Shown in pieces: positions 26,816 through 46,390 of a stretch of 64,000 bases of DNA (positions are counted from its first letter, which is position 1; the number at the start of each line of letters is the position of its first letter). Both the position numbers and the translations under genes were made by a program. Below the pieces are notes generated by a model, which was not told the origin of the DNA, did no database searches, and saw only the letters and a list, made by a program, of their open reading frames with translations. Source of the stretch: Octopus sinensis (Eukaryota); NCBI RefSeq assembly GCF_006345805.1, contig NC_043000.1, positions 53,320,001 through 53,384,000 on the forward strand. The letters run 5' to 3'.

Positions 26816-27829
26816 GGCGGCGAGCTGGCAGAAGCATTAGCACGCCGGGGCGAAGTGCGTCGAAGTATTTCGTCTGCCGTTGCGTTCTGAGTTCAAATTC
26901 CACCGAGGTCGACTCTGCCTTTCATCCTTTCGGGGTCGATAAAGTAAGTACCAGTTACGCACTGGGGTCGATATAATCGACTTAATCCGTTTGTCTGTCC
27001 TTGTTTGTCTTCTCTGAGTTTCGCCTCTTGTGGGTAATAAAGAAATAGGTATCTCGTCTACCGTTACGTTCTGAGTTCAAATTCCGCCGAGGTCGACTTT
27101 GCCATTCATCCTTTCGGGGTCGATAATTTAAATAGCAGTTACGCACAGGGGTGGATGCAATCGACTTAATACTTTTGTCTGTCCTTGTTTGATCCCTCTA
27201 TGTTTAGCTCCTTGTGGGTAATAAATAATTAAGAAACGTTAACACGCTGAGCGAAATGCGTCGAAGTATTTCGTCTGCCGTTACGCTCTGAATTCAAATT
27301 CCACCGAGGTTGACTTTGCCTTTCATCCTTTCGGGGTCGATTAAATAAGTACCAATTACGCGCTGGGGTCGATATAATCGACTTAATCCGTTTGTCTGTT
27401 CTTTGTTGTCCTCTCTGTGTTTAGCCCCTTGTGGATAGTAAAGAAATAGGTATTTCGTCTGCCGCTACGTGCTGAGTTCAAATTCCGCCGAGGTCGACAT
27501 TGTCTTTCATCCTTTCGGGGTCGATTATATAAGTACCATTTATGCACTGGGGTCGATATAATCGACTTAATCCTTTTGTCTGTCCTTGTTTGTTCCCTCT
27601 ATGTTTAGCCCCTTTTGGGTAATAAATAAATAAGAAACTTTAGCACGCCGAGCGAAATGCGTCGCAGTATTTCGTGTTATGTTACGTTCTGAGTTCAAAA
27701 TCCGCCGAGGTTGACTTTGCCTTTCATTCTTTCGGGGTCGATAAGTTAAGTATCAGTTGCGTACTGAGGTCGATCTAATCGACTGATCCCCTCCCCCAAA
27801 ATTTTGGGCCTTGTGCCTAGACTAGAAAC
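26816..27829 (+). mobile_element. Five-unit tandem array of SINE family 2 (184+217 bp dimer, 401-bp period)
   Basis: ctga(g/a)ttcaaa anchors at 26887, 27071, 27288, 27472 and 27689. One head at 26816 and one canonical tail at ~27790-27829. Confidence 0.9.
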
Positions 27830-30968: not shown

Positions 30969-32520
30969 TTTTTAATTGACTCCTTTTTATGGGTTTCAGA
31001 CAAATGCTGATGCCATGCTGGTGCACCGCCTTTACTATCCGGGGATTTTTCCAGTATTGCTTCTGATTAAGTGGCGACTTGGACACTTGTTGTTTTTCAT
31101 TGTGCCTTCTACCGCGATGTCGGTTCATATAGTATTGCTGATAAAAAAAAAACTGTCTTGACGTTTTTTTGAAGACTTCCATGTCCACATTTCGCAGTAT
31201 CCTGATGGTATGTTGTAGAGCATTAAAAATTTGTTGCCCCTTGAATCTCAAACTATTACAATATTGGATTTGTATCTCGATGGAGGAGATGGGACATTTG
31301 GTACAGTGCAGTGCCGTTCAGTTCGGGGATGGTTGTAGCTTTCGATTCCGAAATTTGGAGCTAGACTCTCCATTAGTTTCCATATCTCTCACGTTTCCTC
31401 TCCAGGGAATGGCGTCCCAGTTCCTGTAACCTCTCCCAGTAGTCCATCTTCTTTGTGAAGTGATGCTGGATCACTTCTATTTCCACAATTAGTTTTACTC
31501 TCAACGGTGACCATAGTTGGGAGCAGTGGTCCAGATGACTGAGGACAATGATTCTGCAAAATAGTAGCATTGTGTTTCTGTTCCTGGTCCTGAAGGATCT
31601 CAAGATCCAGCCTGCCACCCGGCCATCTGAGCAGTGTGCACATGGAAAGTTGCGTCGTCTCTCTTGAGGATTTCCAAGTCGAGCATCGACTCTACCTCTG
31701 GGATTGCCTTGCCTACTTGTCCCGAGTAATTCAGTTGTTGTTTGTTTTGGTGTTGATAGCGGAGTGCTTGAAATTTTGCGGTATTAAACTACATGTTATT
31801 CTCATCAGCCCACTTATACATTGCGTTCAGGTCATTCTGCAGTATTAGGATATCAGTAGGATCCTTGATCGGCTGCGATACTTTTGGATCGTCGGCGTAG
31901 CTAGTGGGCGAGGATGACGCTATAGCCAAGGGCATATTCGTGAAAGAAACCACAAACAGTTGTGGGCCCAGCACTAATCCCTGAGAGACTCCCCTGAGGA
32001 TTGGTGTTACTTCAGAGAGAGCACCATTTGCTGTGATAGCCTGATTTCTGCACTTGAGCAAATCATGCAGTCACTCCCTCAATCTACCAGTGATACCGAG
32101 GTCACTCAATTTGCGACATATCATGCCATGATTGACTTTGTCAAAGGCCTTGCCAAAGTCGAGATATATCACACCCACACTTGAATAGTTGAGCTGGTGA
32201 TTTAGTATCCACGCGAAGAGCTCTTGTAGCTGTTTTAGGCAGCTCCTTCTAGGACAGAAGCCACGTTGCGTGTCCTTAAGCAAGTCATTTTCTTCTAGGA
32301 ACGTGGTCAGTCTTTTTCTGACATATGATATGCTAACATATGAGGTCACAGAGATAGGACTGTAGTTTATAGCATCTGCTCTGCTTCCTCCTTTGAAGAC
32401 AGGGCAGATTATTCTCTCCCTTAACATTTGAGGAAATGTACCGCATTCAGCGGAGCTCTGGAAAAGCATTTGCAGTGGTTTTGCAAGAGCTTTCTTAAAT
32501 ATTTTTGCTGGAAGATTCAA
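30966..32520 (-). mobile_element. 5'-truncated decayed CR1-group LINE (RT and 3' end)
   Basis: ICPVFKGGSR..NYSPISVTS, QRGF..RRSC, IYLDFGKAFDKVNH, GVSQGLVLGP, YADD, SHLDHCSQLWSP, YWERL..SLERKRERY. Related to 43638-46391. Confidence 0.9.
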
Positions 32521-32569
32521 CTCTCTCAAAGTACTAATAATACTATAAATAGTGTCATGTAAATATTGA

Positions 32570-32965
32570 GTTGGAAAGCCCTGTTGGGTAGAAAACGTTG
32601 AAGGCTGCTCATGAACCAACAGTTCCTGTAGAAAGACAGCACTCTATTCCTTATGGATTCAACACAGGGACATATACGCTGTCACATACACACACACACG
32701 CGCACCTTCGTGTTGAGATCACCACTACTCTATTACCTTCCTTTGTTCCTTGCTTTCCTGTGTGACCCCTCTGTCCGGCATTCGCCATGATAGATCGTTA
32801 GCCATTAAATCTTTTTCTATTTTCTCTTCCTGTTTATTTTTGTGTACCTTCTATCGAAGAGCGTAGGCTCAAAACGTAAAATACTTTCTCACTTCCCGAG
32901 CGTTAAACTAATACATCTCTTTGTTGCTTACACACCCGTCTTCGTCTTTTGTTTTTTGTAAGTTC

Positions 32966-39477: not shown

Positions 39478-39560
<83 letters not shown>

Positions 39561-39674
39561 ATATTTCGGAATGGTCATATTGCCAGTTTAGCCAATAAAA
39601 ACACACGCACTATATATTTGGTGTTATTTTGCTTCAGTGATATTTATTTTTTACATTAATCTTAATCTTATTTC

Positions 39675-39719
39675 GGCCAAAGTTCTTTCGTCACACTCCT
39701 GTGACCGCATCAGTGGTCC
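39675..39719 (-). ncRNA. Putative minimal hammerhead-like ribozyme in the left (inverted) pLTR
   Basis: Exact reverse complement of 42850-42894. Confidence 0.5.
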
Positions 39720-39813
39720 TTTGTTTTCTTCTCACTTACTTGTGTCTCTCCTTACTAACCGTCAGCCATTTTGTATTTCTATTGTATGTCTTCATTTGCG
39801 CATGCTTATATCT

Positions 39814-42262
39814 TATGGAAACAGTAACGATAATGAAGATAACCCTAGAGAGACCATTGACATGTATGCCCATCCCTTTGACACTCAATTCTTCAACGTA
39901 TGCGACAAAACTTACTGCATGAACCGAATTTATCCAACAACATTACCCTTCAACAAAAGAGTATACATCCCAAGACGTACTAATGACCACATGGAAGCAC
40001 AGTTCACTATAGCTAGGACCAAACTTAGACAGATTTTAGGATTATACATTAAGAGACAGAGACAGAATAAGACAGATGCTCAACAACTCGGGATTAAACC
40101 TGCATGTGGCCTACAGAAGCTCATTCAGCGCACGAGGAACGGAGAGGTGATATGCCTTCCCACGGATAAGTCCGGCAGGATGTCAATAGACAGCTTACCG
40201 AACTACATCCAGGCAATGCAACCTCATATCGCCAATACAAAAGTAACAACTGTACAGGCGCATGAGGAGAGAGAAAAGGTCCTCAATGCCCATATGATGA
40301 TGTGGACAATTGTTCTAGGACCTCAGAAACGTACTGCAAAGAATTTCCAAGCCTGGAACAATGATATCCCGGCACTGTATGGACTTCGCAAGGACCATAA
40401 AGGTTTTACTGACCCTATAGCAGGACCACCAACAAGACCAGTCTGTGGAGCGAATATCGCTAGCAATTACAGAATCTCCTACTTCCTCTCAATGATCATA
40501 CGCCCTATAATCAGGATGTCACCTGATGTGTGTGACAGCACAGAAGATCTCCTAAGCAGGATCAGTGACTGTAACAAAACTTGTGACTTGACAGGATGTA
40601 TAGTAGGTAGCATGGATGTGGTATCCCTATACCCATCGATTGACGTAGATTTTGCAGTGGAGAAGTGCGTGGAGATGATCAACGAGAGCCAGGTGGAGTT
40701 CTGTAATGTCGACACAGAAGAACTAGGCCTCCTACTTAGACTGACATATAATAGTGAATACTTAGATAAACATAATCTTAGTAGTTTCTGCCCCAGTAGA
40801 TGTTTAAGAGGTAGACCGCCTACAATTACTTCTATGGCTAGGAAGACACATATAGAAAGATGCGCGGATGGACCAGAGCCATACGGAGCCCCGCAAATGT
40901 CCATCAGGTAAAGAAAATGATCGCACATGCACTAGGAGCTAGTATAAGAGTTACCCTAAAAGGCCACACATTTAAATTTAATAATAAAATATATGCCCAG
41001 GACGAGGGGGCAGCCATCGGTGTTAGTATCGCTGGTGATGTGGCCAACCTCTTCATGGTATGGTGGGACAGAAGGCTTAAAGAATGCCTACTGCAGAAAT
41101 CCATACTCATAAACATGTACTCTCGCTATGTTGATGATATCAATATAGTAGTAAAGGCACCCCCACAAGAGAGTAATGTTGATATAGTAATAGAAACTAA
41201 TATTATGGAGAGCATCCAGCAAATAGCTAACTCCATCCACCAGAGTATTAAGGTCACAATAGACTACCCCACTAAACACCCCAACCATAGACTACCAGTA
41301 CTAGACACTGAACTCTGGCTAGAAATTGTGAAAAATAAAACCCACATCCTTCATTCATACTATGCAAAACCTATGGCCTCAAAATACCTGATCCACCGGA
41401 ACTCAGCCATTGCGGGCAATGCCAAATTCACTATTTTGATGGCAGACCTCGTCAGAATAATGAGAAATGTGTCACGCATGTGCGAGCCTACAGAATTAAA
41501 GAGACACATACAGTATTTCATTCACCGCATGCAGTTCTCAGGTTACAGCCATAAAGAAAGGGTCAGAGTATACAAAGGAGCCATGAAGAAATTTGATAAT
41601 ATATTATGTAATGATAGGAATGGGATTTGCCCACTCTATAGGAACAAGTCATGGAACACTATAGAAAGGACAAAAAAGAAAATAGGGAAGGCCAACTCTT
41701 GGTATGATAGCCATAAATACCAGAGTGTCATGTTCGTTGACACCACCCCTGGAGGTGAACTGGCATACCGCTTTAGAAGGACCCTAGATAAACTTAAACT
41801 AAGAATTAAGGTTGTTGAAAAGCCAGGCAACACTATCAGATCTATAATTGGTAGAAGCTATCCTTTTAGTAGAACTCTCTGTACGGATAACTATTGCACT
41901 GTATGTAGATTTAGCCCACAAACAAACTGTAAAGCCGAAATGTGGTCTATAGTATAAGATGTATAGAGGGACGATGCAGTAACAAGACAGTAACATACGT
42001 AGGGGAAACAGCAAGAAGCATTGGTGAGCGGGTGAATGAACATTGGAGACAACTCAAGGAAGGTAAAAGCTCATCGATTCTGTACCAACACGCTGAACAA
42101 GAACACGGGGGATCAATCAATAACATAGAGATTAAGATATTGTCCACACATAGAACAGATGCAACAATTAGACAAATTACAGAAGCTACACATATAATAG
42201 AAAATAAACCTAGCCTGAATAGAAAACTAGAATGGAGCAATAGCGCACACCACAACATATGA
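39814..42262 (+). CDS. PLE reverse transcriptase-GIY-YIG endonuclease polyprotein (~815 aa when joined), split by two single-base frameshifts (~40862, ~41940)
   Basis: [35 protein letters not shown], a long insertion before [46 protein letters not shown] linker, [25 protein letters not shown]....H..RQITEA..LN. No internal stops in the three joined ORFs. Confidence 0.9.
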
Positions 42263-42434
42263 CGATAGTGGATCCTGCAAACATAATAAATACACAGATA
42301 ATTAAAGAAATAGAAATGAATAACTATATATATGTATATGTGTATGTATATGTGTATGTGTGTGTGTATATATGTATATATATATATATGTATATATATA
42401 TATAAATGTGTATGTGTATATATGTATATGTGTA

Positions 42435-42507
<73 letters not shown>

Positions 42508-42849
42508 ATATATATATATATATATTTTTTTTTTCCAATTAGATTTATTATTATTATTACTAATATTGTTGATATCCATACATACAAGCATATGTAATGA
42601 TAATAATGGGTGGATGTAAACACATGAACAAAATTAGAACAAAAGCAACAACAACAAAAACAAAATACAAATTACAAGAATGTATATAACCAGAAGATAC
42701 AAATATTACAGGCATCCCCCCCACACACATACTAAATAAACATAGACGCACATAGAGATATAAGCATGCGCAAATGAAGACATACAATAGAAATACAAAA
42801 TGGCTGACGGTTAGTAAGGAGAGACACAAGTAAGTGAGAAGAAAACAAA

Positions 42850-42894
42850 GGACCACTGATGCGGTCACAGGAGTGTGACGAAAGAACTTTGGCC
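42850..42894 (+). ncRNA. Putative minimal type I hammerhead-like ribozyme in the pLTR (core variant CUGAUGCG)
   Basis: Stem I GG(A)CCA/UGGCC, core CUGAUGCG, stem II GUCACA-GGAG-UGUGAC, GAAA, 2-bp stem III AG-AA-CU, cleavage triplet CUU. It has C where canonical A9 is expected. Confidence 0.55.
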
Positions 42895-43070
42895 GAAATA
42901 AGATTAAGATTAATGTAAAAAATAAATATCACTGAAGCAAAATAACACCAAATATATAGTGCGTGTGTTTTTATTGGCTAAACTGGCAATATGACCATTC
43001 CGAAATATAACAATATCTGTTTCAACACACGACTTCACGTAAAAAATCTTGCACAACAAATATTTAAACG

Positions 43071-43113
43071 TATATATATGTATATATATATATATATATG
43101 TATAATATATATA

Positions 43114-43195
<82 letters not shown>

Positions 43196-43229
43196 GCGTG
43201 TGTGTGTGTGTATGTATAAGTATACACAT

Positions 43230-43266
<37 letters not shown>

Positions 43267-43317
43267 CTACATATGTACACACACACACGCGCATATATAT
43301 GTGTGTGTGTGTGTGTA
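43071..43317. repeat. (TA)n/(TG)n microsatellite
   Basis: Directly visible. Similar tracts at 39478-39552 and 42325-42525. Confidence 0.95.
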
Positions 43318-43637: not shown

Positions 43638-46390
43638 TTGATTTTGATTTTGATTTTGATTTTTCCAGTTTCAGCTAATGAGCTGTGGTCATGCTGGGGC
43701 ACCGCCATTTGGTTTGCTACACGATTTTACCTCATGGATGCTTTTTAGCAAACGCCATCTGATGCATGAGAGAGTTCGATGCAGCTGCCCTCATCTGCAC
43801 CTCCTGCCGTGAAGTTGGTTCATCCGGGACACGTGACAGGAAGAGATCCAGTCCTACTTTAAAGACATCCGCATCTACACCATGCAGGTCCCTCAGGTTC
43901 TTCGGGAGGATATTGAAGAGCCGTGGGCCTCTGAAGCCCAGGCTATCACAATATCTTGTCCTACATCTTGATGGCAAATTTGGAGTCCTTGGTACTACGC
44001 AGTGGCGTCCGGTTCTGGCATTTGTGTGACTCTCGATGCCAAAGTCTGGGACAAGACCTTCCAGGATCTTCCAGATATATATTATGGCATATCTTTCTCG
44101 CCTACGCTCCAGGGAATAGAGCTTTAATATCTTGAGTCTTTCCCAGTAGCTCATATGCTGCACAGAGGCTATCTTCTTCGTGTAGCTTCGTTGGATCGCC
44201 TCAAGTTCTGTGATCAACTTGACACTGGATGGTGACCATAGCTGAGAGCAATAGTCAAAGTGGCTTAGGACAAGTGTCTTCCAGAGGACCATCATGGTTT
44301 CTTGTTCTCTTGTTCTAAAGGTTCTAAGAATCCATCCAGCCAGCCGTCTACATTTCATTGTCAGTTTAGCAACATGTACATGAAAGGTCGCGTCATCACT
44401 CATGTGAATACCCAGGTCACGCACTGATTGTGCCTCTGGAATTGCAATCCCTCCGGGTCCAGTGTATTCATTGGGTATTGCATTCAGTTTTGCATGCTGA
44501 TAGTATAAAGCTTGAAACTTTTCAGCATTGAACTGCATGCTATTCTTTTCAGCCCACTTGTATATTTCGTCCAGCTCATATTGCAGGTGCTTAGTGTCTT
44601 CAGGGTTCTGTATTGCCTGTGAAACTTTTGTATCATCTGCATAACTTGTGATCGTGGCTCTCTGCGTGACTGAGGGCATGTCTGAGAGGGCCATTATGAA
44701 CAGTAGTGGTCCCAAAACAGTGCCCTGCGGAACACCGCTCACTATTTGCGTGTTAATGGAAGTGCTACCACCTGACTTCTATTCTTCAGAAAGTCATGAA
44801 GCCATTCTCCCAGTTTTCCAACTATGCCAAGATCACGCAGTTTGTGACATATCATTCCATGATCGACTTTATCGAAGGCCTTTGCAAAGTCGAGATATAT
44901 GACTTCCACATTTGAGTGGTTGAGCAGTTGTTTCAGCACCCAGTCATAGTGTTGTAGGAGCTGAGTTAAGCAGCTTCTTCCTGGTCGGAAACCATGTTGG
45001 GTGTCAGGCAGCAAGTCATTTTCTTCAAGGAAGGTGATTAGTTTCCTTCTAACTATTCGTTCCATGACCTTGCTGATGTGTGAGGTGAGAGAGATAGGTC
45101 TGTAGTTCTTGGCCTCCGCTCTGCTACCTCCTTTATGAATAGGGCATATTTTACCTTCCTTCAGTTTTCTTGGAAGTTTGCCAGCTGCAAGGAAGCTCTG
45201 AAAGAGGAACTGCAGTGGTCTTGCTAGGACTCTCTTACATACTTTTAGGAGGATTGCCGGGAATCCATCGGGGCCAATAGCTGAGTCTGTTTTCATTTCA
45301 TCTATAGCCTTTATTACATCATCTTCCTTTATATCGATGTAATTTATCGTCGCCGCCTCTGATTTTATATCTGCAGTGGTAAAGAAGTCAGTTGGATTGC
45401 TGATTTGGAAATGCCCAAGGGGTGGAGTGAAAACACTCTTGAATTGTTCATTCAGTATTTCACTTACACTCGTTGGTTTTCCTGTGAGTGTGCCATCCTT
45501 TTCAAGGAGTGGCCCTATCCTACAGTGCACCGTAGCTGTTTCTTTGGCATACCTGTAGAAAGCTCTAGGGTTAGTTTTTATGTTGTCTATAGCCCAGGCT
45601 TCTTTGTCTGCTCTTTCCTTTTCATGGGAGAGTTGCAGACAATTTTCAATTTCCAACAGTTTTATTTTCAGGCGGGACTTTTCACTGCTTTCAATTTGTT
45701 TGTTTAGGCGATTTGAAATTTTTGTACGCCGTCTCATTAAAATTTTCCTCTCTCTGGGGATTTTGTTCTTGTGTACAGTGGCCTTTCTCTCTGGGACACA
45801 TTTGTAGCATATGGCTTGAATTACAGACATGAATTGTTGAAGTTTCATGTCGATGTCCGGCGAGGAGAGACATTCAGGCCAGTTTTGTTTGAGGATCTCT
45901 TTCTCAATTTATTTCCAGTTTGCCTTATTGAAGTTCAAGCTGGAAAGCTTCTGAGAGCTTCTTGTAGGCTGCATGTCCATGCTTTCCTTTGGCCCGTACA
46001 TAGTCAGCTCTACCATGTTGTGATCCGAGAGTAGTGTCGGTGTCACTTTCACATTATGGATGAGATCCATATTATTTGTGAAGCAGAGGTCCAGTGTGTT
46101 ACCTGCCCTGGTTGGTTGGAGTATTACTTGCTCCATGTACAGGGTGTTGATGAGGTTCAGGAGGGACCTCGCCTGTCCCCGTTCACATCGTGTCATTCCT
46201 GGGAGAGAAAGGCCCTCGGGCCATCTGACATTGGGCAGGTTGAAGTCTCCCATGAGAAGTACACTTATGTGCTGTTCTAGTCTTCAAACTTGCCCATATG
46301 GCTTGGGGCATCTGGAGGGCGATATGTAGCACACACAACTACATCAAGTTGCCTTATATGTACAATTAGTGTGTCACACACCGAGTTTGA

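Follow-up and report, generated by a model that had tools for sequence, protein, structure and literature searches.

A young, 5'-truncated Penelope-like element of Octopus sinensis points to a widespread and likely undescribed lineage with a long reverse transcriptase insertion

We find that the retroelement at 39553-43070 of the window (the 64,000-nucleotide stretch of Octopus sinensis contig NC_043000.1, positions 53,320,001 to 53,384,000, to which all coordinates refer) is best explained as a young, 5'-truncated copy of an abundant family outside the Naiad clade. This family belongs to a marine-animal lineage that carries an insertion in its reverse transcriptase (RT) and is likely undescribed; the insertion is predicted to help grip the TA target, and the copy would have arisen by two-site priming as in the anole element PAc. 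We assign this joint reading a probability of about 0.78. A reading made from the sequence alone had described a Penelope-like element with inverted pseudo-LTRs (pLTRs) and an asymmetric tail, and this description holds, as RT and GIY-YIG domains, arms and a one-sided tail are all present.

The two arms (39553-39813 and 42756-43016) measure 261 nt and are 100% complementary, as the sequence-only reading had judged by eye, and they reach 265/266 nt once one 1-nt gap is allowed near 39813. Alignment of the arms identified the left one (39553-39817, minus strand) as an inverted, 5'-truncated and tailless copy of the 3' end, which overlaps the sense body by a 2-nt microhomology (TG, 39816-39817). 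Only the right arm runs on, for a further 54 nt (43017-43070, plus strand), and the copy is flanked by (TA)n on both sides (39480-39556 and 43071-43274); both features had been recognized before. A third tract, (TA/TG)n at 42325-42525, lies inside the element's own 3' UTR or pLTR (42263-42990, plus strand). The 5'-truncated ORF (39816-42262, plus strand) covers RT, linker and GIY-YIG endonuclease in three frames (39592-40911, 40842-41957 and 41933-42262), with weak domain matches to RVT_1 and GIY-YIG. Along it, translation and comparison with homologs placed a DKS motif (40165-40173), a lineage-specific insertion of ~70 aa that separates RT motifs A(3) and B(4) and occupies the site of the IFD in telomerase (40687-40898, also seen in the structure model), the YVDD of RT motif C (41127-41138) and a short Cys linker, CX4CxxCX7C, with Nematis-type spacing (41880-41930), followed by the C-terminal GIY-YIG endonuclease (41940-42240; VVY...C...C...YVG, R, H, E, N), which was assigned from domain and structure matches. 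Other repeats share the window. At 43732-45908 on the minus strand, 460 nt to the right of the element, lies a LINE-type RT (RVT_1) in two overlapping frames, presumably CR1-like; a further LINE RT fragment occupies 32071-32643 (minus strand), and tandem units of ~184 bp at 26830-27784 form a SINE-like repeat.

The copy had been called near-intact, a label that does not survive comparison with the many longer genomic copies, which extend ~1.47 kb further 5'. In four full-length copies the distance from ATG to stop is 3,900-3,924 nt (~1,300 codons), within a whole unit of ~4.6 kb whose start codon sits in the pLTR. Reading across unit junctions, we located this ATG in the window at 42991, in frame with the ORF, so that 42991-43070 (plus strand) holds the start codon and the first 27 codons of the next unit's ORF; at 10 places in the genome the tail reads on into the ORF. 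A homolog (P0011) starts with MVIPK, matching the family's pLTR start, and one longer copy (L082) reads unbroken from the pLTR ATG to an LPPKYAV motif, with neither GIY-YIG nor CxC in its 220-aa N-terminus. The joined protein of ~815 aa proposed earlier stands insofar as the three frames do cover RT, linker and GIY-YIG, but it represents only the C-terminal 63% of the ORF, and codons 1-74 of the first frame belong to the antisense arm and are noncoding. As the start codon and ~490 codons are lost, the window copy is dead whether or not its frameshifts are real, and it is an ordinary, non-autonomous insertion with known Penelope anatomy. In one long copy (L005:850-1500) and in others we also observed a low-complexity stretch of ~270 aa, rich in Asn, Ser and Gly, within the ORF after a GxKF/Y-like motif; relatives carry inserts of widely varying length at this place.

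The family is large and its ends are regular. Searching the Octopus sinensis genome (2.72 Gb) at the DNA level and scoring the best 40 of 3,039 candidates, we obtained at least 29 further long copies at 92-99% identity. A 22-nt motif from the 3' end had 3,420 exact matches genome-wide and its reversed control 0, which marks a family signal and not chance. The summed contig depth climbs ~20-fold toward the 3' end, although this is no measure of copy number. We classified the first 30 distinct ends along one chromosome: 16 were tailless, 13 carried a tail of at least 45 nt and 1 was intermediate; 24 of these 30 ran into at least 4 TA units, compared with 2.4% of window positions. Both the existence of further copies and the preference for (TA)n, which the sequence-only reading had left to a genome search, are thereby borne out, with flanks that are mostly (TA)n. 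The 3' ends fall at two fixed points, the tailless at 43016 (ORF +26) and the tailed at ~43070 (ORF ~+80), both joined to (TA)n. Exactly one tail was present in 19 of 20 two-armed units, and the family includes partial tandems (of the pLTR) as well as inverted 5'-truncated copies with a tail at one end. Related metagenomic loci include a partial tandem (L139) and one ending in (TA)n (L140). A second family of the long-insert lineage seems to be present in the same genome, represented by related endonuclease ends (L091, L106) and a named octopus protein (P0292) at 59% identity.

The frameshifts of the window copy are two private 1-nt deletions. The first, a missing G at 40861/2, is as previously proposed; at the second, the copy lacks a lone A following 41936, in the context CC-A-GA and outside the A-run to which it had been ascribed, although a one-base repair suffices there too. 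Both bases are present in 29/29 other aligned copies. Across 19 young copies (<1.2% divergence) we counted 29 short deletions, 0 insertions and 119 private substitutions, compared with 8 indels and 267 private substitutions in 11 older copies. As the indels do not grow with age and the young ones are all deletions, the pattern points to assembly error in near-identical repeats; both window frameshifts are probably of this kind, which makes the earlier suspicion of consensus errors a probable one. That they are instead true mutations, and the family recently extinct, seems unlikely to us. No single unbroken ORF occurs in 10 full-length junction copies (longest 748 aa), one break lies outside any homopolymer and the window copy has 8 private substitutions, all of which would suit extinction; against it stand the indel pattern, the 5 of 19 young copies that are open across their aligned part, an L005 frame open for 1,044 aa, and contigs from four other sequencing runs with both bases, which break at (TA)n and reflect the family state and not the window locus. 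Recent mobility of the family is supported by the closest copies, which differ at 5 positions per 2,447 nt, in agreement with the youth claimed before. Furthermore, shared changes comprise 58 synonymous and 41 nonsynonymous substitutions and private ones 100 and 257 (Fisher p 4e-8), and the synonymous excess among shared changes supports selection on a source lineage. The ORF was also found in runs guessed to be RNA, one of which contains the 5' part as well and leaves the unique flank empty; since a multi-copy repeat may stem from DNA, this says nothing about expression.

Within the pLTR, a motif fold located a minimal hammerhead-like motif at 42850-42894 (plus strand), present in inverted form in the left arm too, whose cleavage is putative and whose core position 9 is C in place of A. 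Of 74 family copies, 68 share this C and none has A, and a scan of 53 related metagenomic loci gave 7 motif hits, of which 6 have A9 and one (L140) has C9. A search against Rfam retrieved no hammerhead, only microsatellite-driven microRNA matches.

The encoded protein belongs to a widespread lineage. Protein searches at E 0.001 returned 196 near-length proteins, and 316 representatives were obtained at the stricter cutoff of E 1e-30. The nearest named protein, from Octopus vulgaris, is 98% identical, and with this match set aside the best 120 of the 196 near-length proteins share 32-53% identity. The homologs come from octopus, sea cucumber, jellyfish, corals and marine metagenomes, with named members from Octopus vulgaris, Holothuria leucospilota, Sanderia malayensis, Desmophyllum pertusum and Porites evermanni; the Sanderia protein (P0269) is 55% identical to the octopus family over 447 aa, above most relatives. 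In a domain census of the 115 scorable among the best 120 near-length matches, YIG was C-terminal in 105/115 and N-terminal in 0/46 of those with a long N-terminus, DKS was present in 90/93 with the motif found, and the commonest linker spacing was CX4CxxCX7C (64/105), the linker being 5-11 aa long across the lineage. The family thus has the makeup of C-terminal EN+ Penelope-like elements, a single ORF with a telomerase-like RT followed by GIY-YIG with CCHH. The best solved-structure matches of the full RT model are telomerases (Z 13-14), and the GIY-YIG model matches the catalytic domain of I-TevI (Z 10.6, rmsd 2.0, 88 aligned); a sequence search of the PDB found nothing.

The insertion sets this lineage apart. 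In all 144 scorable proteins of 268 collected, a distance of 126-144 aa separates RT motifs A and B (131 for the octopus element), compared with 59-72 in canonical references (59-63 in those of Neptune, Poseidon, Nematis and Hydra type), 60-72 in 6/7 endonuclease-less ones and 82-87 in Naiads. It retains the motifs E-x-G-L-Y-L, C-P-x-R-x3-G-x2-P-x2-T and R-x3-W, and residues E531, G533, L534, C554, P555, R557, G561, P564, T567, R577 and W581 (P0001 numbering) are kept in 80-97% of 150 rows. The insertion is modeled as helices and loops with a pLDDT of 87. Taken alone, it gave no Foldseek match at E 0.001, which is no proof of a new fold, and in VIA the best Z was 4.2 among 48,161 chains, with no telomerase or TERT among the matches listed, which does not imply different folds. 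In the literature, Repbase and Dfam aside, we came across no account of a lineage that joins a C-terminal endonuclease to an insert of this kind, and the present one, with its conserved, telomerase-sized fingers insert, is likely an undescribed variant. The accessible part of a 2026 preprint still counts eight Penelope-like clades, and the octopus repeat annotation, in the part available (PMC13282606), reports 31 recently active families of Penelope-like elements and gives them no clade names.

We placed the lineage using maximum-likelihood trees of 22 of its members and 10 Naiads together with other references, with the insert columns removed. Two rows were dropped (P0061, motif unparsed; P0251, misaligned N-part), and a second tree also omitted Hydra and was thinned to 33 rows. 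References other than the Naiad seed were labeled by motif (Figs S2 and S7 of PMC8557442), the tree holds no named Nematis, Athena, Chlamys or TERT, and most canonical references had been retrieved with the long-insert lineage's own patterns; Poseidon references were taken from metagenomes because 25 loci of that type in the own genome had no open frame. Long open frames of 712-883 aa occur in the same genome for Neptune-type (L119, L120, L121, L124) and Hydra-type (L244, L254) elements, and the Neptune-type copies have a second frame upstream. The lineage was monophyletic at 99/100 in the first tree and 100/100 in the second, with a stem of ~1.0 change per site that equals the stems of named clades in length, and the 10 Naiads formed a separate clade at 100/100. 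Without Hydra, it grouped at 93/88, not starred, with the Nematis-like L197, a single motif-labeled reference. Scored against the lineage profile, 15 canonical references reached 86-172 bits and 10 Naiads 33-63 bits; the top score belongs to the Neptune-type L193 (172 bits), above L197 (159 bits), and the Hydra-type L244 scored 9.5 bits. On these data, the deep placement of the lineage among Penelope-like elements is weak.

The assignment to Naiad made from the sequence is refuted by domain order and tree. Naiads have an N-terminal GIY-YIG, CxC, DKA and an IFD ~20 aa longer than canonical, according to the available part of PMC8557442, and our comparison Naiads likewise showed N-terminal YIG, DKA and an A-B distance of 82-87. 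The octopus element has a C-terminal endonuclease, DKS and not DKA, no CxC and a finger insertion about three times that of Naiads, and the RT phylogeny, which the earlier reading had named as a check, puts it outside their 100/100 clade. Naiads are indeed described with a (TA)n target, with CX2-5CxxC and CCHH motifs and with an insertion separating RT motif A from B, which speaks for the assignment, although linker, CCHH and (TA)n occur in Neptune and Nematis too; given the endonuclease position across homologs and the A-B distance of 131, the element has next to no chance of being a Naiad. The exact Naiad pattern gave no match, and with mismatches allowed 6 degenerate places. Among Naiad-type proteins from our searches, P0445-P0458 combine N-terminal GIY-YIG, DKA and RT with a C-terminal ubiquitin C-terminal hydrolase (PF00443 on 10/31 hits; E 5e-26 at residues 1010-1288 of P0449), a retroelement with a deubiquitinase that the available part of PMC8557442 does not describe. 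We regard as improbable a further scenario that makes the lineage the sister group of Naiad/Chlamys: having retained a telomerase-type IFD of ancestral origin and lengthened it, and with its endonuclease at the other end, it would link N- and C-terminal types. The insert does sit at the IFD position with telomerase-like length (text of Fig. S1, PMC8557442, available part), and a tree with the lineage beside Naiad is not rejected by the AU test (p-AU 0.358); yet both maximum-likelihood trees put the lineage among canonical elements, Naiads have the lowest profile scores except Hydra, the insert is modeled as helices and loops, and independent inserts occur at the same site in some Coprina and in Adineta Pen3/Pen5a.

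The lineage may be a large Nematis sub-branch already present in Repbase or Dfam as generic Penelope, a serious contender that we rate somewhat short of an even chance: in its short Cys linker, its IxVVEKPG stretch and the residues inserted from KxHK to RP, it is similar to the three Nematis rows that Fig. S7 gives (PMC8557442, available part), it groups with L197, and the 31 octopus families lacking clade names leave room for it. The Nematis rows of Figs S1 and S7, however, show no insert and have DKG or DKR, the stem is comparable to those of named clades, and canonical Penelope-like elements are said in the available part of that source to be without an IFD. At the other extreme, we hold only tentatively, at about one chance in three, that this is a ninth deep clade, common in marine animals (molluscs, cnidarians and echinoderms) and unique among groups with a C-terminal endonuclease in having a fingers insert of telomerase size. 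The insert would then be a new subdomain for binding nucleic acid, through which the enzyme primes from a few TA pairs, and the octopus family would still be mobile.

The best-explained route to the window copy follows PAc by analogy. For that element, the available part of PMC11167929 reports that both target strands are cut and extended, that the tail in vitro spans from one to the other of two RT start sites lying internally at the beginning of the ORF, and that these sites are not homologous to the cut DNA. In the octopus family, a longer-than-unit RNA would be bound by the element protein at the pLTR-ORF junction, both strands of a (TA)n tract would be nicked by this protein and reverse transcription would begin at two internal sites, one per nick. 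For the window copy, one cDNA of 266 nt and another of 3.25 kb, joined at the 2-nt microhomology, would yield inverted arms with one tail. We hypothesize that the conserved Arg, Trp and Gly-Pro of the insert contact nucleic acid and that the insert steadies pairing of the primer with the RNA over 2-4 nt, as both ends finish in TA/ATA; it would thus do the job of the IFD in telomerase, reached independently. The nonhomologous start sites of PAc speak against such short pairing.

Penelope-like RTs are the sister group of telomerase. The IFD has been used to link Naiad/Chlamys with telomerase, and canonical C-terminal-endonuclease elements are said to lack it (PMC8557442, available part). A large lineage with a longer, conserved insert would either add a clade to the eight named or show that new subdomains have settled at this site more than once. 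The family offers a clean genomic read-out of two-site priming, with its one tailed and one tailless arm in 19 of 20 units, and as the open 1,044-aa copy is usable for biochemistry, the role of the insert is directly testable in the PAc assay.

The element resembles PAc (Poseidon_Ac) of Anolis, as described in the available part of PMC11167929, in an ORF start within the pLTR, a tail between two fixed points in the ORF start, an AT-rich target and a putative pLTR hammerhead, and differs in its 54-nt tail at ORF +26 to +80, the position of the hammerhead-like motif ~100 nt upstream of the ATG, the Cys linker and the RT insert. The minimal hammerheads of metazoan Penelope-like elements (PMC4209133) share with the motif at 42850-42894 a short stem I, a 6-bp stem II with a G-C closing pair, an extra base before stem II and the absence of a stable stem III, whereas C9 is not among the variants that the available part of that source describes. 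In telomerase RT, the top structural match of the element's RT, an insertion of similar length is found at the corresponding position; the octopus insert shows no detected sequence or fold likeness to that of TERT, and the element differs further in bringing along an endonuclease and in encoding the template that it copies. With Naiad/Chlamys it shares an insertion at the IFD position, the (TA)n target and tandem or inverted units with a tail, but has its endonuclease at the C-terminus, no CxC, an insertion of ~70 and not ~20 aa, and minimal hammerhead-like motifs (compared with the available part of PMC8557442). With Nematis, compared by eye for the linker with Fig. S2 and within the available part of the same source, it shares RT, the short CX2-5CxxC linker, GIY-YIG with CCHH, additional residues separating KxHK from RP, a similar stretch before the linker and a weak grouping with a Nematis-like metagenomic element; its ~70 extra residues between A and B, DKS, KDHK, an ORF of 1,000-1,300 aa with a variable low-complexity linker and a long stem of its own are distinct. 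The Neptune linker is long (CxxC, ~25-35 aa, C), also in the Octopus sinensis Neptune copies, compared with 5-11 aa here, and Hydra elements, with a CxCX5C linker, no CCHH, DKT, a divergent motif B and a length below 3 kb, differ from the octopus element. The DK motif reads DKG in canonical Penelope-like elements, DKA in Naiad, DKT in Hydra and DKS in the octopus lineage.
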